Assembly (NCBI GenBank): GCA_001783805.1
Contig: MFNS01000006.1
Coordinates: forward strand, 34,095 to 98,094
Direction of reading: 5' to 3'
From: Candidatus Levybacteria bacterium RIFCSPHIGHO2_01_FULL_40_16
GTDB taxonomy: Bacteria; Patescibacteriota; Microgenomatia; Levybacterales; UBA12049
DNA length: 64,000 nucleotides
Shown here: piece after piece, positions 1,124-31,938 of the stretch
How the letters are laid out: every line of letters begins with the position of its first letter
Numbering within the stretch: position 1 is the first letter of the stretch
Position numbers and translations under genes: made by a program
The notes under the pieces: generated by a model
The model's input: only the letters and a program-made list of their open reading frames with translations
Databases searched by the model: none
Told to the model about the DNA's origin: nothing

Positions 1124-1702
1124 GTGTTAATACATAAGCCTCTTATTATCGGGATCACAGGAGCATTTGGAAGCGGTAAGTCAACGACCGCGGATTTTCT
1201 CAAAAGTCTTGGATTTACAAAAGTGAGCCTTGCGCAATTTTTGGAAGAGGAATTAAGAGATCGGGGAGAAAAAAAGATTACCCGTAAACTTCTTCAAGAT
1301 CTGGGAAATGCTTGGCGAGAAAAATACGGAGCAGGAATTCTCGCCAAAAAAGCGCTGGGGCTAATTGAGAAAAAAGCCATGCAAAAAGTAGTCGTTGAGG
1401 GTTTTAGGAATAGTGCAGAGATTGACAAATTCCGCAAGCAAGGCAATTTTAAATTAATTGGTATTGTTGCAAACCGGAGAATCCGTTTCGGACGGCTCAA
1501 AAAATTAGACAGGAGAGAAAAATTAAATTGGGAGCTGTTTAATGAACTCGACAATCGGGATTTGGGGATCGGGGAAGAAAAGAATGGATTACAAGTGGCA
1601 ATTTGTCTGGCCTTATCCGACATCTTTATTGAGAACAACCGTGGTTTGGAAGAGTTTAAAAATAAAATTAAAAAAGCAATTAAAGAGAAAATTAATGACT
1701 AA
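1124..1702 (+). CDS. P-loop nucleotide kinase (dephospho-CoA kinase-like / NMP kinase family)
   Basis: GTG start; Walker A GITGAFGSGKST near N-terminus; 192 aa; sits between adk and cmk. Confidence 0.4.
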   Translation: MLIHKPLIIGITGAFGSGKSTTADFLKSLGFTKVSLAQFLEEELRDRGEKKITRKLLQDLGNAWREKYGAGILAKKALGLIEKKAMQKVVVEGFRNSAEIDKFRKQGNFKLIGIVANRRIRFGRLKKLDRREKLNWELFNELDNRDLGIGEEKNGLQVAICLALSDIFIENNRGLEEFKNKIKKAIKEKIND

Positions 1703-12765: not shown

Positions 12766-13017
12766 ATGAGTCAAAAACTTGTAGAAAGAATCGGCTGGGC
12801 AGCCTCCGCAATAGCGATTCTCATGTGGTTTTCCTTTATTGATCAAATCCGCTTAAATCTATCCGGACAAAAAGGTTCGCTACTAATCCCAATAGTGGTT
12901 ACGATAAACTGTATTTTGTGGACAATGTTTGGATTGGGGAAGAAAAACTGGCAGATAATTTCAGCTAATGTGCCGGGAATATTTCTCGGCGTCCTCACCG
13001 CGCTCACCGCGCTATAA
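12766..13017 (+). CDS. SemiSWEET / PQ-loop family small membrane transporter
   Basis: 83 aa, 3 TM; aligns with SemiSWEET (IGWAASAI...FIDQI..., LW..FGL, SANV). Confidence 0.45.
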   Translation: MSQKLVERIGWAASAIAILMWFSFIDQIRLNLSGQKGSLLIPIVVTINCILWTMFGLGKKNWQIISANVPGIFLGVLTALTAL

Positions 13018-13384
13018 TTTTTTGGCAGTTTTTACTTCCACAATTACATTTAAAATTAACAAACGCTCCGATTTTCGCATAGTCCGAAGTTACCTCTTCT
13101 CCTTTGCGAATATTTTTTAAAGCAATATCGCAATTATTTTTTACATAGGTATTTGGATCGCAAGAATGATTGACGTATCTTTCCGGAGGTTGCATTAAAA
13201 GGTATTTATTACTGTTTATTTTCTGGATATAATGTTTTTCTGTCTTCGGTAGCTTATCTATTTCGGATCTTACAATAATTTTCGGATTCCATTTAAGAGC
13301 AATCTCACCTTTTTTAAAATCTTTTACAGCAAATACGCCCTTTTTATTAATTTTTGATTTTTTAACGAGAATATGATTGCTCAT
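13004..13384 (-). CDS. SET domain protein (putative protein-lysine methyltransferase)
   Basis: NHSCDPN signature and EEVTSDY, C-terminal Cys cluster (post-SET-like). Confidence 0.7.
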   Translation of the reverse strand: MSNHILVKKSKINKKGVFAVKDFKKGEIALKWNPKIIVRSEIDKLPKTEKHYIQKINSNKYLLMQPPERYVNHSCDPNTYVKNNCDIALKNIRKGEEVTSDYAKIGAFVNFKCNCGSKNCQKIIAR

Positions 13385-13409
13385 TAATAATATACTTGTT
13401 CAAAAAGTG

Positions 13410-13480
13410 TCGGGATGCAGGGAATTGAACCCTGGCTACCGCACCCCCAGCGCGGCGTACTACCGTTATACGACATCCCG
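13410..13480 (-). tRNA. tRNA-Pro (anticodon GGG)
   Basis: Cloverleaf folded by hand: 7-bp acceptor CGGGATG/CATCCCG, anticodon loop CTGGGGG, T-loop TTCAATT; no encoded CCA. Confidence 0.8.
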
Positions 13481-13497
13481 TTCTTGCTTTGCAATTT

Positions 13498-13526
13498 GTC
13501 TTTAGTTCTTTGTCTTTAGCCTTTGG
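13498..13526. repeat. CTAAAGAC-containing repeats (inverted orientation) downstream of four-helix-bundle gene
   Basis: gtctttagttctttgtctttag; same 8-mer as upstream repeats 13882..14019. Confidence 0.5.
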
Positions 13527-13867
13527 TTGGATAAAGATTTTATCAAAGCATTTAATTCTTTTCCAACTATTTCACATTTTTCTAATGCAGTTCTTATGTC
13601 AATTTTGAATAATTTCTCAGCGATTTTTAATCCCGCAACAGTCTCGTATAGCGATTTTAAAGCTATCCTTAAGAAACTTTTGAATTCAATATCTCCTAAT
13701 GCTCCTGTTCCTTCTGCTATGTTTAAAACGATAGATGTTGTAGATCTTTTTAGTTGATTTATTAAAGCAAATTTTTCTTCAATAGGTAAATTTTCTGTAA
13801 GTCTGTATACTTCTTCGACTAAGATTAAAGCATTATGATAAACCCTCAGTTTTTCAAATCTATACAT
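13502..13867 (-). CDS. four-helix-bundle protein (TIGR02436 / Avd-like, 23S rRNA-IVS protein family)
   Basis: 121 aa, all-helical, family-typical YRLTENLPIEEKFALINQLKRSTTSIVLNIAEG region. Confidence 0.55.
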   Translation of the reverse strand: MYRFEKLRVYHNALILVEEVYRLTENLPIEEKFALINQLKRSTTSIVLNIAEGTGALGDIEFKSFLRIALKSLYETVAGLKIAEKLFKIDIRTALEKCEIVGKELNALIKSLSNQRLKTKN

Positions 13868-23157: not shown

Positions 23158-23620
23158 ATTTTACTTTGTCGCCATTTTTAAATTTATATTTTTCAGAGAG
23201 ACCGGCCTGAATTTCTAAAACTTTGTCTGACGGTCCTACCGGAGTATAAATTATTGGACTTTCCTTATTATCTTTTGGAGGTTGAGCATTGTTTTTTATT
23301 TCAACTATCGTGTCGGTCTTAATATAAATTATGTCAATTGGAAATTTCATATTCTTCATCCAAAAAGAATAATAGTCGGGCTTATCGAATAGAAAAATCA
23401 TTCCCTGATCCTGTTGAAGTTCTTTGGTTTCGGACAAGCCTATTTCCCGCTCTTGCTGCGATGCTGCTGCAATTACTCTAAAACTATGGCCAGCGATTGT
23501 TACGGTTGGAGTTTTTTTAAAAAGAGATAATGATCCGCCGCCGGTTAGGTAGTTTTGAGTAAAATACATGGCTCCGGCAACGATAAGCAAAAGCGCAAAT
23601 ACCAATAATACTTTTTTCAT
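23138..23620 (-). CDS. DUF192 family protein
   Basis: Signal/TM then GMIFLFD...FWMKNMKFPIDIIYI, typical DUF192. Confidence 0.55.
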   Translation of the reverse strand: MKKVLLVFALLLIVAGAMYFTQNYLTGGGSLSLFKKTPTVTIAGHSFRVIAAASQQEREIGLSETKELQQDQGMIFLFDKPDYYSFWMKNMKFPIDIIYIKTDTIVEIKNNAQPPKDNKESPIIYTPVGPSDKVLEIQAGLSEKYKFKNGDKVKYENLGN

Positions 23621-24102
23621 TAATTCACATTAATTAATTTCATGTATTTAGTTGTTGAGTGGTTTTGAATTTTTTTGACTGCATAAATAACTTTGCCCTG
23701 AACTAATTTTGCCTGTCTTCTTTTATGTCTCACATATGGGTCGCCTTGGGTAGTCGCAATTATGTCAGGGCGTATTTCGACCATGAGTTTATCATACAGA
23801 TCATTATTTGTCATGTTTTTAAGCATGATTATATAACTAACACTTTCAAGGGAAGATAAGACTTTCGCGCGGTCTTGCTGGGAATTTATTGGCCGGTGTT
23901 TACCTTTTTCTCTTGCGGCTTTACTGTCATCCTCCAGTAATAAGAAGAGATAGTTGGCATATTTTTTTGATTTTTCCAAAAACTTGATGTGGCCTAAATG
24001 CAATATGTCAAAAAATCCGCCAACAACAACAATTGTTTCGTTTAATTTTCTAATTTTTTTTGCGATTTCGATAGCTTCTTTTATATCTAAGATTTTTTTC
24101 AC
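23620..24102 (-). CDS. cytidylyltransferase-like protein (RfaE domain II / heptose-1-P adenylyltransferase-like)
   Basis: GTG start; GGFFDILHLGHIKFL (HxGH) and KGKHRPI blocks. Confidence 0.5.
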   Translation of the reverse strand: MKKILDIKEAIEIAKKIRKLNETIVVVGGFFDILHLGHIKFLEKSKKYANYLFLLLEDDSKAAREKGKHRPINSQQDRAKVLSSLESVSYIIMLKNMTNNDLYDKLMVEIRPDIIATTQGDPYVRHKRRQAKLVQGKVIYAVKKIQNHSTTKYMKLINVN

Positions 24103-24159: not shown

Positions 24160-25611
24160 TTAGTTTTCCTTTGTACCCCTAAGAAAAATAGATTGCCAGG
24201 GAGCGTAATTTGAAATAAAGGTCTCCGAGATAATTTTTTTACCATTTTTCATTACTTCCCTTGCGAAAGAGGCTCTTGATCCTTCCGCACTGAAATCTAT
24301 TTGTTTTACTGTTCCCTTTGGCAGGGTTGGATCATCTTGGTATAGATCCGGGGGCGGCGGAACTCGGTTGGTAATTACCGGCTGAGTCAGGGTAACTTCT
24401 CTTCCGTCTTTAGTACCATAAAGAAAAACTGAGAGTCTTTGCTCTTCCAGATCGATTTGAGTTTGTACAAGGATGTAGTTACCGGTATCATTTTTGAATT
24501 TTAAGTCGACGCTCGGGACAAAAACAGTAGCATCCAGTCCTGGCAGACTGTCCTGCTCATAATACCCAACCCGATACGCGTGAGCATGCCTCTCCGTAAT
24601 TGGAACCCCCGCATTGAGAATTGCTCTGAAGAAAGTGGTTGATACTTGACAAATACCTCCTCCATCACCAAGCACTGTTTTGCCATTTTGGATAATATAG
24701 GCTTGTTGGTAGCCTGTAAAGGAAGAAACATCGCCCAAGGCTTTGGCAAAAGAAAATTCTTCATTGGGGGCAATTAGAACTCTATTTATTCTGGATGCGG
24801 CCAGGGTAATGTTGAATATTCTCTGAGGTATTGAATGCTGAAAAAGAGAAGTTCCCGTTCCAATCAATTCTTTTATGCCCAAATTGTTTGCTTTATCCGT
24901 AGTTATTTTAGGCGAAAAAGTTTTGATGGTAACCGGAATAACTATTTCTTGAGTTTTTTGTACTAACAATACCTTTTCAAATTGAGCTCTCAAATCTTGC
25001 TTAACTTTCTCCATATCAACCGCTTTGCCTTCTTCAGACGGTTTGAATGCCAGGACTTTTCCGTTTTGAAAAGTGAAAAGCGCATCAACGGGTTCCTTAT
25101 TCACCTTTTCTATAAATGGGGTCAAGGTTTTATTCAGCATGTCTTCGGAATAGCGGTATGCCGGCTGCAAATTTAATCCATTAAAGTATGCCTGAAAAGC
25201 AATGCTAATATTAGAGAGAAATTCATGGGATTTTCCCAAGCCTATTGCCTGCTGAGCAATGAGCTTTTCATCATAGCCAAACTTCAAATCTTTAGCTGAA
25301 ATTGTCGCTATATTCTCCGAAAGTGAAAATGTAAATTGAGTATTTTCAATAGTCTCGTTTCTCTTAGCAAACAATTCCTCGACTTCCTTTTGAGTAGATC
25401 CTCCTACGTAGATGTTATTAAACGTTATTCCCGGATAAACAACGCCGGCGTTCACCTTTTCATAGATAATAAATGTAAAACTTGCAAATAAAAATGCTGC
25501 CAAGACTGCTCCGGTAATAAACCAAAAGCAGGCTTTCATAATGCGTGTAATAATTTTTTTCCGGATTTTTAATTTTTTAGTTTGCTTCATTTGATATACT
25601 ATAGCTGACAT
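24160..25611 (-). CDS. VanW family protein (membrane-anchored)
   Basis: N-terminal TM; VanW core GDGGGICQVSTTFFRAILNAGVPITERHAH. Confidence 0.65.
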   Translation of the reverse strand: MSAIVYQMKQTKKLKIRKKIITRIMKACFWFITGAVLAAFLFASFTFIIYEKVNAGVVYPGITFNNIYVGGSTQKEVEELFAKRNETIENTQFTFSLSENIATISAKDLKFGYDEKLIAQQAIGLGKSHEFLSNISIAFQAYFNGLNLQPAYRYSEDMLNKTLTPFIEKVNKEPVDALFTFQNGKVLAFKPSEEGKAVDMEKVKQDLRAQFEKVLLVQKTQEIVIPVTIKTFSPKITTDKANNLGIKELIGTGTSLFQHSIPQRIFNITLAASRINRVLIAPNEEFSFAKALGDVSSFTGYQQAYIIQNGKTVLGDGGGICQVSTTFFRAILNAGVPITERHAHAYRVGYYEQDSLPGLDATVFVPSVDLKFKNDTGNYILVQTQIDLEEQRLSVFLYGTKDGREVTLTQPVITNRVPPPPDLYQDDPTLPKGTVKQIDFSAEGSRASFAREVMKNGKKIISETFISNYAPWQSIFLRGTKEN

Positions 25612-25631
25612 ATTATACTAGATATTGCCTT

Positions 25632-27089
25632 ATGGATGAAAATATGATCTTCAAGCCCATTAATACTGTCCCTCAAGAGGCGGACATTCAGCCTGCCCGC
25701 CAGAGCCTTGCTCAGGCAAGTGCAGGCGGGCCTGAGATTCCGCCAAATAATCCAGTTATTGCACCAGTTCCATCTGAATTACAAAGTAGTCCTCCTCCGT
25801 CAATACTATTTAGGATTTTGAAAATTTTATTGGGAATAGCGATTGTTCTTGGCATTATTTTCTTCGTCTACAATATAATTTTGCCTAAGTTTTTTCCTTC
25901 CAAAATCAATCAGGCAACATTGACATATTGGGGATTGTTCGAAGATGCTTCAGTAATCGCTCCGATTATTGTAGATTTTGAAAAGGAACATCCGAATATT
26001 AAAATAGAGTATACCAAGCAAGACCTGGATCAATATAGGGATAAATTGGTAACCCGTTCTAATAATGGTAATGGTCCGGATATCTTTAGGTTCCACAATA
26101 CTTGGGTTCCTCAGCTTTCAGAGCTACTTTTGCCTCTTCCTCAGAGCGTTATCTCAAAAGAAGATTTTTCTAAAAATTATTATCCGGTCGTTAAGACAGA
26201 TCTCATAAAAAATGGGGCTATTTACGGTGTGCCTTTGCAAATAGACACCCTGAACCTTTTTATAAATAGAGATCTTTTTCAAGCAGCCGGTCTCAAGCCG
26301 CCTGGCACCTGGATAGAATTCGTAAAATACGCGAGACAACTGACTGTCAAGGATGGAAATAACAATATAAAAACAGCCGGAGCCGCAATGGGAACATTCA
26401 GCAATATAACTCATGCTCCCAATATAATCTCAATGCTTTTTGTCCAGAATGGCGTGAATCTCAATGATATATCCTCCAATCTTCCGGCTGCAGCTGAGGC
26501 CTTAAATTTTTACTCCTCCTTTGCCTTGCCCGCAGAGAACGTCTGGGATGATACCCTAGATGAATCAATTAAACTCTTTGCTTCGGGCTCCCTAGCCATG
26601 TATTTTGGTTATTCGGGAGATTTTTTTACAATAAAATCCATGAATCCAAACCTTTCATTTGACATTTATTCGGTACCGAGTTTGCCGGGGCAAAATGCAA
26701 CGATTGCCAGTTACTGGGCTGAGGGAGCATCTGTCAAAAGTAAACATCAAAAGGAAGCACTTCTTTTCCTGCAATATCTTACCCGAAAAGAAACAGCGCA
26801 AAAATTATTCACAGAAGAGTCAAAAACGAGAAATTTCGGTGAGCCATATGCCAGAGTTGATTTAGCAGATAGCTTGAAGGATTCCATTGCTTATCCTTTT
26901 GTCGGAGCAGCGCCCTCTGCGGTTTCTTCTTTCTTTGTTGACGGGACGTTTGACAACGGATTAAATTCCCAGATGAATAACAATTTAAGCAGTGCGGTAG
27001 ATTCTATGCTGAAAGGAACATCCCCGCAAACAGCTGCCGAAACTCTTTCTGCGGGAGTTTCGACAGTCCTAAAGCAATATGCCCAATAA
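25632..27089 (+). CDS. extracellular solute-binding protein (ABC transporter SBP family 1-like), membrane-anchored
   Basis: Pro-rich N-terminus, TM, SBP_bac_1-like fold; no adjacent permease or ATPase. Confidence 0.55.
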   Translation: MDENMIFKPINTVPQEADIQPARQSLAQASAGGPEIPPNNPVIAPVPSELQSSPPPSILFRILKILLGIAIVLGIIFFVYNIILPKFFPSKINQATLTYWGLFEDASVIAPIIVDFEKEHPNIKIEYTKQDLDQYRDKLVTRSNNGNGPDIFRFHNTWVPQLSELLLPLPQSVISKEDFSKNYYPVVKTDLIKNGAIYGVPLQIDTLNLFINRDLFQAAGLKPPGTWIEFVKYARQLTVKDGNNNIKTAGAAMGTFSNITHAPNIISMLFVQNGVNLNDISSNLPAAAEALNFYSSFALPAENVWDDTLDESIKLFASGSLAMYFGYSGDFFTIKSMNPNLSFDIYSVPSLPGQNATIASYWAEGASVKSKHQKEALLFLQYLTRKETAQKLFTEESKTRNFGEPYARVDLADSLKDSIAYPFVGAAPSAVSSFFVDGTFDNGLNSQMNNNLSSAVDSMLKGTSPQTAAETLSAGVSTVLKQYAQ

Positions 27090-28113
27090 CCTAATTGTCT
27101 GTGGAGGAACATTTGACCATTTTCACAAGGGACACGAAGCATTTTTGAATTATGTTTTTTCTGTTGGCAAAAAATATCTTGTTGGAATAACCAGCGATAA
27201 CTACGTAAAAAATTCAAAATTTAGAATTCAGAATCCAGAATTTATTGAACCTTTTGAAAAAAGAAAAGAATCAGTTTTGGAGTTTGTAAAAAAAGAAAAA
27301 GCTTTAAATAAAGTTGAGATCATTAAAATAGAGGATTTGTTTGGGCCCACTCTTTCTAAAGATCTAGTGATTGATGCAATTGTTGTGTCACAGGATTCAA
27401 AAGATGGAGCAGACATCATTAATCAAAAAAGAAAAGAGCTCAAGTTGGCTGCGCTTAAGGTCTTTGTTGTTCCTCCTGTTAATTCTGAGGACGGAAAGCT
27501 TATTTCGTCCGCGAGAATTAGGAACGGCGAAATAAATAGAGCAGGCAGACTCTATGTAAAACCGGTATGGCTTCAAAAAGATTTAATTCTCCCAAAAGAT
27601 TTAAGAGAAGAGTTTCATAAACCGTTTGGTGGATTATTTAAAGCTATTACAGATTCGAATATTCTCAAAAAGTCTTTGATAATTGCAGTCGGTGACGAAA
27701 CATCCAGAAATCTTAATAAGTTAGCTGTCAATCAAAGGCTCTCTGTGGTAGATTTTAAGGTTGCGCGAAAGAAAAAATTTTCCTCATTCCTAGATCTTGG
27801 TTTCTCAGGAAATGAGAAAGTTGTATTTGCAAATAATCCTGCAGGCCACATGACGCATGATCTTTTCTCAAAAATCTTAGATATTTTTAAATTCAGTTTT
27901 AGCAAGAGGATAATCTTAAAAATAGCAGGAGAAGAAGACCTTGCGGTTTTACCCTTAATCTTGGCAGCGCCTCTGGACACTGTCATTTATTATGGTCAGC
28001 CCCCACTTCGCTCTGCGAGCTACGCGGGGCAGGCAGGCATTATAAAAGTGGTAGTTACAGAACAAAGTAAAGAGCGCGCTTATGATCTAGCCTCAAGACT
28101 AAAGCCTATATAA
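27079..28113 (+). CDS. archaeal-type phosphopantetheine adenylyltransferase fused to DUF359-like (GTP-dependent dephospho-CoA kinase-like) domain
   Basis: N-terminus CGGTFDHFHKGH (cytidylyltransferase HxGH); C-terminal half resembles DUF359 (IAVGDETSRNL...VVDFK). Confidence 0.45.
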   Translation: MPNNLIVCGGTFDHFHKGHEAFLNYVFSVGKKYLVGITSDNYVKNSKFRIQNPEFIEPFEKRKESVLEFVKKEKALNKVEIIKIEDLFGPTLSKDLVIDAIVVSQDSKDGADIINQKRKELKLAALKVFVVPPVNSEDGKLISSARIRNGEINRAGRLYVKPVWLQKDLILPKDLREEFHKPFGGLFKAITDSNILKKSLIIAVGDETSRNLNKLAVNQRLSVVDFKVARKKKFSSFLDLGFSGNEKVVFANNPAGHMTHDLFSKILDIFKFSFSKRIILKIAGEEDLAVLPLILAAPLDTVIYYGQPPLRSASYAGQAGIIKVVVTEQSKERAYDLASRLKPI

Positions 28114-28129
28114 CTAATACTAGAGGTTA

Positions 28130-28158
28130 TTGACAAATATCCCCTAATATTATATATT
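28130..28158 (+). promoter_or_regulatory. candidate greA promoter (-35 TTGACA, 17 nt, -10 TATATT)
   Basis: Consensus hexamers upstream of leader hairpin. Confidence 0.5.
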
Positions 28159-28171
28159 TTTCATGCTAACA

Positions 28172-28205
28172 ATCCCTCGACACTAAAAATTTGAGGGATT
28201 TTTTA
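28172..28205 (+). terminator. intrinsic-terminator-like hairpin in greA 5' leader (ATCCCTC...GAGGGAT + T6)
   Basis: 7-bp stem, 13-nt loop, TTTTTT; ends 14 nt before greA ATG. Confidence 0.5.
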
Positions 28206-28218
28206 AGTATTAAAGGCT

Positions 28219-28689
28219 ATGGATACAAAAAAGATTTACTTAACAAAAGAAGGATTGGCAGAGCTCAAAAAAGAGTACGATGAGATTGTCAATGTAAAAA
28301 GACCGAATGTTTTGGCACGCGTTACTCAAGCCAGAAACATGGGTGATTTGTCGGAAAATGCGGAATATGTTGCCTCCCGCGAAGAACTGACTTTCATAGA
28401 CGGAAGAATAGACGAGTTGGAGATTATTCTTAAGCAAGCAGTGATTATAAGGGATAATGTTAAGGCGGCAAATCATGCGGTAAAGCTAGGATCTACGGTT
28501 ACATTGACCGTTAATGGCAAAAAAGAAATTTTCACAGTTGTTGGAGAGTGGGAAGCGGATCCGGAAAACAAGAAAATCTCGCATGAATCACCGCTTGGGA
28601 AAATGCTAATTGGTAAGAAAGTGGGAGATAAAGTTCAGGTTGAAGCTCCTGCCGGCAAAATCACTTACGCTGTCATCAGCGTAAAATAG
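28219..28689 (+). CDS. greA: transcription elongation factor GreA
   Basis: N-terminal coiled coil with acidic tip (DLSENAEY) and FKBP-like C-terminal domain. Confidence 0.85.
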   Translation: MDTKKIYLTKEGLAELKKEYDEIVNVKRPNVLARVTQARNMGDLSENAEYVASREELTFIDGRIDELEIILKQAVIIRDNVKAANHAVKLGSTVTLTVNGKKEIFTVVGEWEADPENKKISHESPLGKMLIGKKVGDKVQVEAPAGKITYAVISVK

Positions 28690-30387: not shown

Positions 30388-31938
30388 TTGAGTGACAGCC
30401 TGTATAATATTGATATGTTTTGGGTGGATAGCGTAGCTGCAGAATTAAAAAAGAGAAAATTATCTCTGGAGTGGGTAGATGATATGAAAACCCCATCCGG
30501 CAGAATCCACGTTGGCGCTCTACGCGGTGTAGTAGTCCATGATTTGGTTTTCAAAGCATTAAAGGAGTTGGGTGTTAAGACAAAATACACTTATATTTTT
30601 GACAATCACGATCCAATGGACTCTCTGCCCGTATATCTTCAAAAAGAAAAATTTGAAAAATATCTGGGAATGCCGCTTTTTAAAATCCCTTCTCCAGCTG
30701 CTGGATTCAGCGACTATGCCCAGTATTATGCAAAAGAATTTATGGAAGTTTTTAATAAAATCGGCTGCCATCCTGAAATTTTATGGTCAACGGATTTATA
30801 TAAAAGCGGAAAAATGAACCCCCTGATAAAAGAATGTTTAGATGAGGCTTCCGAAATAAGAAAAATTTATGAAGATCTTTACAAGAAAAAAATTGACAAA
30901 AAATGGTATCCTTTTCAGCCGTATTGTCCAAATTGCAGTAAGGTTTCGACGACAAAAGTTTATAACTGGGATGGGGAAAAAGTTTCATTTACATGCGAAA
31001 TAGACGCTGTTGTCTGGACAAAAGGATGCGGATTTAAGGGGAAAATGTCACCTTTTAGTAATGAAAAAGGAATTGCAGGCAAGCTTTCCTGGAAAGTGGA
31101 GTGGGCTGCGAAATGGAAAGTTTTAGGCATAACCGTTGAAGGAGCAGGCGAAGATCATATGAGCAAGGGCGGATCGCATGATTTGGCAAGCCTTATCTGC
31201 GAAAGAGTGATTAATTATCCTGTTCCGTACCCTTTGCCTTATGCGTTTTTTTTAATAGGAGGCAGAAAGATGTCTTCTTCGAAAGGCCGCGGGTCGTCCG
31301 CTCCTGAAATGCTTGAAATTTTACCGCCGGAAATCCTGCGCTTCTTAATGGTAAAAACAAAAGTCAGTCAACAGATTAATTTTGATCCCAGCGAAGACAC
31401 TGTACCCAAACTTTTTGATGATTATCAAAAAGCAGCCGAGGCATATTTTGAAAAGAAAGATGAGAACCTAGCAAGGATTTTTAAATTATCGCAAATAGAT
31501 AAAGTAAAAAAACCACCGAGCATTAGATTCTCCGTTTTGGCACAATGGGTGCAAATGCCCAACATGGAAAAAGAAATAAAGAAGGAAAGTCTTGAGGAAT
31601 GGGAGTCTTATGCAAAAATTTGGGTTGAAAAATATGCTCCAAACGAAATTAAATTTTCTATCCAAGAAAAAATACCAGAGGCTTCTAAAAAACTTTCTCA
31701 AAAACAAAAAGAATATTTGCTTAAAGTCTCCTCATTTTTAGATAATAATTGGGACGCAGAGGAATTTCAAAAGAAACTTTATGAATGGGCAAAGGAGATA
31801 AGCTTATCCCCTACAGAAGCATTCCAAGCATTATATGTGTCGCTTATTGGTAAAGATTACGGACCAAAAGCAGCATGGCTAATTTTAAAACATAAAGATT
31901 TTGTAAAAAAACGGTTTCTTGACGCCGCTAATTCATGA
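30388..31938 (+). CDS. lysK: lysine--tRNA ligase, class I (archaeal type)
   Basis: Class I signatures: HVGALRG (HIGH-like) and KMSSSKG (KMSKS). Confidence 0.85.
   Translation: MSDSLYNIDMFWVDSVAAELKKRKLSLEWVDDMKTPSGRIHVGALRGVVVHDLVFKALKELGVKTKYTYIFDNHDPMDSLPVYLQKEKFEKYLGMPLFKIPSPAAGFSDYAQYYAKEFMEVFNKIGCHPEILWSTDLYKSGKMNPLIKECLDEASEIRKIYEDLYKKKIDKKWYPFQPYCPNCSKVSTTKVYNWDGEKVSFTCEIDAVVWTKGCGFKGKMSPFSNEKGIAGKLSWKVEWAAKWKVLGITVEGAGEDHMSKGGSHDLASLICERVINYPVPYPLPYAFFLIGGRKMSSSKGRGSSAPEMLEILPPEILRFLMVKTKVSQQINFDPSEDTVPKLFDDYQKAAEAYFEKKDENLARIFKLSQIDKVKKPPSIRFSVLAQWVQMPNMEKEIKKESLEEWESYAKIWVEKYAPNEIKFSIQEKIPEASKKLSQKQKEYLLKVSSFLDNNWDAEEFQKKLYEWAKEISLSPTEAFQALYVSLIGKDYGPKAAWLILKHKDFVKKRFLDAANS

Follow-up and report, generated by a model that had tools for sequence, protein, structure and literature searches.

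Can a single bacterial polypeptide, made up of two enzymes of archaeal type, carry out the last two steps of coenzyme A (CoA) synthesis? This question is raised by a gene in a 64-kb stretch of DNA, here called the window, from Candidatus Levybacteria bacterium RIFCSPHIGHO2_01_FULL_40_16 (contig MFNS01000006.1, positions 34,095 to 98,094), an organism with a tiny genome. A first-pass annotation, made from the sequence alone, had proposed that the open reading frame (ORF) 27079-28113 encodes an archaeal-type phosphopantetheine adenylyltransferase (PPAT) fused to a domain resembling DUF359, the family of the archaeal GTP-dependent dephospho-CoA kinase (DPCK). The ORF was found as proposed, uninterrupted on the forward strand, at exactly these coordinates and with an ATG start, and both domains (PF01467 and PF04019) exceed curated hidden Markov model (HMM) thresholds within its one polypeptide (Table 1). 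It is highly probable that the protein is a bifunctional CoA synthase assembled from two archaeal-type enzymes, and that throughout the Levybacteria its gene is conserved as a housekeeping gene and inherited vertically.

Table 1. Coordinates in the window of the fused gene, its domains and motifs, and other features discussed (aa, amino acids)
Feature	Position	Strand	Remark
Fused PPAT-DPCK gene	27079..28113	+	Complete ORF, 344 aa plus stop, ATG start
PPAT domain, archaeal/eukaryotic type, aa 1-164	27079..27570	+	
CGGTFDHFHKGH, aa 8-19, HxGH nucleotidyltransferase motif (H16, G18, H19)	27100..27135	+	Invariant in 43 homologs
ISSARIR, aa 142-148, second nucleotidyltransferase motif, ISSTxxR type	27502..27522	+	Alignment A1, 3do8
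DUF359 / GTP-dependent DPCK family domain, aa 165-344	27571..28110	+	
D206 codon, GD motif (IAVGD), corresponding to catalytic D48 of TK1697	27694..27696	+	Alignment to 8jvc
D225 codon (VVD), corresponding to catalytic D67 of TK1697	27751..27753	+	Alignment to 8jvc
D287 codon (GEEDL), corresponding to D125 of TK1697	27937..27939	+	Alignment to 8jvc
Gene for membrane-anchored solute-binding protein (SBP_bac_1/8), upstream	25632..27089	+	Pfam, sequence
Sigma-70-like promoter match ahead of the gene pair	25591..25619	+	Consensus scan, 10/12
P-loop kinase, 192 aa, GTG start, P-loop GITGAFGSGKST	1124..1702	+	ORF list

The N-terminal 160 or so aa, said in the first-pass annotation to carry the cytidylyltransferase motif of archaeal PPAT, score 47.3 bits against PF01467 (CTP_transf_like; aa 7-149, cutoff 21) and 146.8 bits against NF001985, the model for archaeal-type PPAT (COG1019; cutoff 104), with aa 6-159 corresponding to profile positions 7-153 of 157. 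The HxGH motif is present where it had been indicated, in CGGTFDHFHKGH; H16-K-G-H19 agrees with the pattern (T/H)xGH and I142-SSARI-R148 with ISSTxxR. Conservation was assessed in a divergent set of 148 sequences, consisting of the query and 147 cluster representatives that are about 35-52% identical to it and all fused. H16 is found in 147 of these, H19 in 146 and R62 in all 148, while S144 and R148 are without exception in alignment A1. The best sequence match in the PDB is the PPAT of A. fulgidus, 3do8 (1.5e-18; 2.8e-25 with a profile of 43 sequences, covering residues 3-145 of 148), and the ISSARIR of the fusion is aligned to its ISSTRIK.

These data also bear on the proposal that the two domains act on another adenylylated cofactor, as an adenylyltransferase and kinase of the FMN/FAD or NMN/NAD type, and not on CoA intermediates. 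NF001985 is the sole model above its curated cutoff for this half of the protein and is ahead of every non-PPAT model by at least 100 bits, and in fold the archaeal PPAT is clearly the closest solved structure, ahead of other nucleotidyltransferases. Moreover, the joining of consecutive CoA steps is also seen in archaea and, with an unrelated kinase, in the eukaryotic COASY. A different cofactor is thus very improbable.

The assignment of the C-terminal 180 or so aa to DUF359 had been based on the blocks IAVGDETSRNL (aa 202-212) and VVDFK (aa 223-227). Both were located, and the HMM for PF04019 bears the assignment out with 70.3 bits over aa 208-340 (cutoff 25; profile positions 1-124 of 126). 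The GTP-dependent DPCK of T. kodakarensis, TK1697 (8jvc), is matched at 2.5e-13 by sequence and at 2.1e-26 with the 43-sequence profile (residues 5-171 of 177). Neither a P-loop nor a CoaE match was found in this half using Pfam, NCBIfam and fold comparison. It has been shown that the in vivo function of TK1697 in T. kodakarensis suffers from the mutations D48A and D67A and, to a lesser degree, from D125A (PMC6650551). The corresponding residues D206, D225 and D287 are each present in 148/148 sequences, as are G205, G284, E285, L288, Y305 and G306, and the GD, NPxG, GEEDL and YGQP motifs show no or almost no variation over the same set. Such conservation of the catalytic aspartates and of these motifs, among sequences no more than about 50% identical, speaks for selection on catalysis. 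The loop after YYGQP (aa 309-316, 28003-28026) is longer by 7 aa, LRSASYA, in the window protein than in the consensus of the 43 homologs, an insertion presumably shared by its closest relatives.

The first-pass annotation had suggested a structure prediction and had named another fold of the C-terminal half as the outcome that would count against it. An AlphaFold2 model computed from the alignment of 43 fused homologs has a mean pLDDT (predicted local distance difference test) of 89.2 and a pTM (predicted template modeling score) of 0.86. Disorder is confined to aa 312-316, the insert loop being the sole stretch with a pLDDT below 50. When the model was compared with the PDB using Foldseek, 8jvc and 8jvg came out on top (E 1e-14, target TM 0.79-0.82), followed by 3do8 (TM 0.79-0.83). 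The C-terminal half thus takes the fold of the solved DPCK and not another one, while the N-terminal half is of the 3do8 type. The linker residues W164, L169 and L171 are invariant in the 43 sequences and the linker is modeled confidently, which suggests that the two domains are held in a fixed arrangement.

According to the proposed mechanism, aa 1-164 would convert 4'-phosphopantetheine and ATP to dephospho-CoA (EC 2.7.7.3), and aa 165-344 would phosphorylate the 3'-OH of dephospho-CoA, giving CoA (EC 2.7.1.237). The donor in the latter step would probably be GTP, as in T. kodakarensis, where it is the preferred phosphate donor of TK1697. The intermediate might be channeled between the two sites, and the fusion might be the main or only route to CoA in the cell. 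A different division of labor can be envisaged, in which only the PPAT half is catalytic, the DUF359 half is a regulatory or ligand-binding module, for instance a sensor of CoA or dephospho-CoA, and the kinase step is left to a P-loop kinase such as that encoded by ORF 1124-1702. Many sources do name the fused protein just "pantetheine-phosphate adenylyltransferase", and ORF 1124-1702 has some likeness to CoaE. However, the near invariance of the three aspartates and of the GD, NPxG, GEEDL and YGQP motifs argues against a DUF359 half without catalytic function, and the P-loop protein itself fits the part badly.

This protein had been described in the first-pass annotation as a CoaE-like P-loop kinase of uncertain specificity. 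The ORF exists and the caution about specificity is fair, but the likeness to CoaE is weak: the scores are 24.2 bits for Pfam CoaE (PF01121; cutoff 27, E 3e-5, profile positions 1-72 of 180) and 20.4 bits for TIGR00152 (cutoff 65.55), so both thresholds are missed, and the similarity is limited to the P-loop end, aa 7-90. The best matches among solved structures are to archaeal UPF0200/SSO1041 "AdkA-like" proteins (3lw7, 3h0k; 7e-11), while the CoaE of T. thermophilus, 1uf9, is matched at 1.6e-4. Matches are also found to PRK08356 (65 bits) and to the N-terminal kinase part of the "anti-phage dCTP deaminase" NF041025 (58 bits). The gene lies between adk (579-1121) and cmk, a position that suggests a nucleotide kinase. 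Of the two proteins of T. kodakarensis that resemble CoaE, neither showed DPCK activity. Judged by these similarities the protein is a poor DPCK candidate and not a canonical CoaE, and a fusion in which only the PPAT half is catalytic seems improbable. The cmk ORF as listed (1542-2399) overlaps ORF 1124-1702; as the Cmk domain begins at aa 59, the real cmk start is probably near 1700.

One further gene with a cytidylyltransferase fold, encoding 160 aa (23620-24102, reverse strand), is found in the conserved syntenic block of the Levybacteria. It scores 99.8 bits against TIGR02199, below the cutoff of 181.5, and 35 bits against the PPAT model. It was rejected as a PPAT and is like RfaE domain II (heptose-1-phosphate adenylyltransferase).

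A further possibility is that the fusion is an artefact, either because errors in sequencing or assembly joined two neighboring genes or because a contig of archaeal origin was binned with a bacterial genome. Data from metagenome-assembled genomes (MAGs) are indeed error-prone, and several related MAGs are clearly mislabeled taxonomically. The distribution of the fusion speaks strongly against this. In a 90%-clustered database 556 matches were obtained, and each of the best 120 has both Pfam domains. When 1.84 billion representatives at 50% identity were searched exhaustively, 627 clusters were obtained at E <= 1e-30; among the best 150 of the 627, 147 are fused with PPAT before DUF359, the remaining three being fragments. 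The occurrence of both domains, in the same order and in one ORF, in 147/150 cluster representatives shows that the fusion is not an artefact of gene calling or assembly. The same ORF is found in hundreds of independent assemblies, and it is also continuous on a complete Levybacteria chromosome of 762 kb (L009, CP066685.1). The conserved and well-modeled linker and the composition of the gene, with a G+C content of 36.4% compared with 37.4% for the window, point in the same direction.

Nor is the window archaeal. It contains SecY-Adk-Cmk-Map, RpoA with the bacterial C-terminal domain, L17, L13, S9, RecA/RecX and RNase Y, and further GreA, SecA, FtsEX, RF2, TsaD/E and Sua5. The gene order RmuC-TsaD-DUF192-nucleotidyltransferase-VanW / solute-binding protein (SBP)-fusion-GreA is kept across the Levybacteria, and from this conserved neighborhood the fusion gene appears to be native to them and vertically inherited. 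An artefact is, in view of all this, hardly credible.

Full-length matches were found in 48 GTDB species-representative genomes, which are labeled as Levy-, Gottesman-, Roizman- or Beckwithbacteria, Microgenomates group or Patescibacteria group. The fusion is thus widespread in one bacterial group, the Microgenomates-group candidate phyla radiation (CPR), and at least two lineages of archaea have it too. The DPCK family has been described as archaeal, and a PSI-BLAST search found nothing outside arCOG04076 (PMC6650551). Given the bacterial housekeeping genes of the window, and homologs named Levybacteria or Patescibacteria, the bacterial host extends the known range of the family and does not exclude membership in it.

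The databases name these proteins in different ways. In GenBank, the cluster of the exact window protein contains OGH24356.1 / OGH45985.1, which are entered as "hypothetical protein [Candidatus Levybacteria bacterium]". Those relatives in the 90%-clustered database that have a name are mostly called by that of the PPAT half only, while some JGI names read "UPF0218 family/phosphopantetheine adenylyltransferase" and one Patescibacteria fragment at NCBI is named "GTP-dependent dephospho-CoA kinase family protein". The DUF359 family in these bacteria is thus already recognized by databases; a literature search for DUF359 or DPCK in CPR or Patescibacteria found nothing. Some relatives deviate in architecture. 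P0290 (501 aa) has about 165 additional residues N-terminal to PPAT, in P0366 (407 aa), P0377 (423 aa) and P0308 the PPAT and DPCK domains are separated by an insert of about 100 aa, and in P0299 (487 aa) DUF359 is joined to PF02397 (bacterial sugar transferase) and not to PPAT.

The archaeal two-domain proteins were retrieved with an artificial concatenate of the PPAT of L049 and the DUF359 of L056, the scores of which are meaningless in themselves. Two kinds are archaeal by gene context, both with PPAT first: the P0303 group, which adjoins XPF/ERCC4-HHH and DUF460, and P0348, labeled Micrarchaeota, which adjoins RadA and Mre11/Rad50. Neighbor-joining trees of each domain, rough and without support values, were used for shared clades and not for the direction of transfer. 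The PPAT and DUF359 trees give the same clades, which fits inheritance of the fusion as one unit. The Micrarchaeota protein groups with a Gottesmanbacteria clade in both trees, and the P0303 group is placed beside archaeal standalone DPCKs; the trees hint at an exchange of the fusion between domains of life.

Several observations weigh against a bifunctional CoA synthase or limit how precisely it can be described. Both activities of the bacterial fusion are assigned by homology, and the preference for GTP is known for one archaeal enzyme only, TK1697. The Thermococcales equivalog models are not reached, with 87.6 bits against a cutoff of 290 for NF041124 and 66.5 bits against 300 for NF041125 (DPCK). 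The C-terminal half matches NF041125 and four related PRK01160 models along the entire length of the models, far below their narrow equivalog cutoffs. Such a shortfall is to be expected since the models are lineage-specific; family membership stands, while strict orthology is not certified. A Pfam scan of the approximately 60 ORFs of the window detected no PanK, CoaBC, CoaD, CoaE, PanBCDE, PoK or PPS, and no CoA-related genes are found among the neighbors of the fusion, either in the Levybacteria window or in other Microgenomates lineages.

A wider hypothesis is that the Microgenomates-group CPR have neither the bacterial CoaD/CoaE nor the upstream CoA pathway, that they rely on this single archaeal-derived, GTP-dependent fusion together with 4'-phosphopantetheine scavenged from hosts or the environment, and that DPANN archaea and CPR have exchanged the fused gene. 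In the light of CPR biology, salvage of 4'-phosphopantetheine is plausible. The hypothesis as a whole is put forward tentatively, as something that may well prove wrong. If it is true, an enzyme held to be a pan-archaeal signature would belong to the core genes of a large radiation of bacteria, and salvage of CoA precursors would be a defined dependency of these symbionts.

The bifunctional CoA synthase has some consequences of its own. The names "hypothetical protein" and PPAT alone hide the DPCK half and are to be corrected, since metabolic reconstructions of CPR that use them overlook the DPCK step and count CoA synthesis as incomplete. In a large group of bacteria, the "archaeal" DPCK family is conserved as a housekeeping gene, and a two-step CoA salvage route is suggested as a dependency on a host or community. 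Together with a class I lysyl-tRNA synthetase and the UPF0200-like kinase of the window, the fusion enlarges the set of archaeal-flavored CPR genes. As a mesophilic natural fusion it would also be a convenient subject for studies of donor specificity and possible channeling in a little-studied kinase family.

The gene immediately upstream encodes the SBP, and its stop overlaps the start of the fusion gene by 11 nt; due to this overlap the two are probably co-transcribed. The promoter match ahead of the pair is weak evidence, as such matches are no commoner in the region than in shuffled sequences. The adjacency is limited to the Levybacteria, where one or two unrelated genes intervene in L007, L009 and L042, and the Pfam scan of the window found no permease or ATPase genes beside the SBP gene. 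The SBP was for these reasons rejected as the mark of a precursor-uptake operon, and a functional link to the fusion is unlikely. In more distant Levybacteria (L009:9084-9992, L007:9130-10011), a conserved ORF of about 300 aa starting with MGSNISKNILKTILYSDLFDYPL and without a Pfam match is found between the SBP gene and the fusion. This ORF is absent from the window.

Downstream, the greA leader has a strong sigma-70-like promoter match (TTGACA, 17 nt, TATATT; 11/12) at 28130-28158 on the forward strand. It is followed by a 10-bp hairpin (28171-28180 / 28191-28200) and a T-run just 5' of the greA start at 28219, with a fold z-score of -3.2. The hairpin could be the terminator of the SBP-fusion transcript, or a greA attenuator comparable to the leader of E. 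coli greA, GraL.

In other Microgenomates lineages, the neighbors of the fusion are TrpRS/TyrRS, LeuRS, BipA, transketolase, Rpe and DUF2207. In one Microgenomates clade (L033:11063-14167; also L035, L037, L041, L046 and L053) the LeuRS gene lies directly 3' of the fusion, and in its product an alpha/beta-hydrolase (Ser_hydrolase) domain is inserted behind the editing domain, at aa 465-639. The lysyl-tRNA synthetase of the window mentioned above is of archaeal type (30388-31938, forward strand; PF01921, 310.7 bits). The sole tRNA in the window, tRNA-Pro(GGG) at 13409-13480, is flanked by genes for a SET-domain protein (126 aa) and a member of the "23S rRNA intervening sequence protein" family (121 aa), at 13004-13867 on the reverse strand.

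Several relatives come from MAGs labeled "uncultured Gammaproteobacteria" (L001, L005, L010, L012, L014, L021, L022, L030, L048 and L055; "binchicken", SRP-numbered co-assemblies). These have a dozen syntenic housekeeping genes in common with the window, with about 50-90% protein identity. As they share the syntenic block of the Levybacteria, the labels are wrong and the genomes are Levybacteria. For L045 and P0334, the labels "Pseudomonadales" are probably a mistake of the same kind.

When it comes to known systems, the architecture of the fusion has been described before. Many uncultured archaea have a PPAT joined to arCOG04076/DUF359 (Makarova et al., PMC6393860; Shimosaka et al., 2019, PMC6650551), and it was the archaeal PPAT-DUF359 fusion that led to the prediction, and then the proof, that the standalone TK1697 is the missing archaeal DPCK (PMC6650551). 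The range of hosts has received less attention. Archaeal fusions such as AIF21550.1 (marine group II/III Euryarchaeota) have the same two domain families in one polypeptide, and the same function, the last two CoA steps, has been inferred for them. The retrieved P0303 group and P0348 have PPAT followed by DUF359 as here and are of similar length (313-326 aa). The window fusion differs from the archaeal ones in its bacterial host (CPR, Levybacteria), and the identity is just about 30-40%.

TK1697 of T. kodakarensis (EC 2.7.1.237; PDB 8jvc, 8jvf and 8jvg) is a standalone, hyperthermophilic enzyme of 177 aa. The DUF359 domain of the window is about 25-27% identical to it and has the extra 7-aa loop after YYGQP. 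For the PPAT half, the closest known enzymes are the archaeal/eukaryotic-type PPATs (COG1019), represented by A. fulgidus 3do8, TK2128 and the PPAT of P. abyssi. The bifunctional PPAT/NTP phosphatases of the Thermoplasmata (NF002250, PRK01170; about 320-350 aa) also have an archaeal-type PPAT at the N-terminus. The PPAT half of the window fusion matches NF002250 at 104 bits, far from the 489 bits that are set as cutoff for the full length; the Thermoplasmata proteins have another C-terminal partner, and the C-terminus of the protein at locus L050 is not DUF359.

In eukaryotes, COASY is a bifunctional PPAT-DPCK with a PPAT of the archaeal/eukaryotic type. The same consecutive reactions are thus fused in the same order as in the window protein. 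However, the kinase of COASY is a P-loop DPCK of the CoaE type, whereas no such kinase lies C-terminal to PPAT in the window fusion, which has the unrelated DUF359 fold, related to thiamine pyrophosphokinase. The two fusions are analogous and convergent, not homologous.

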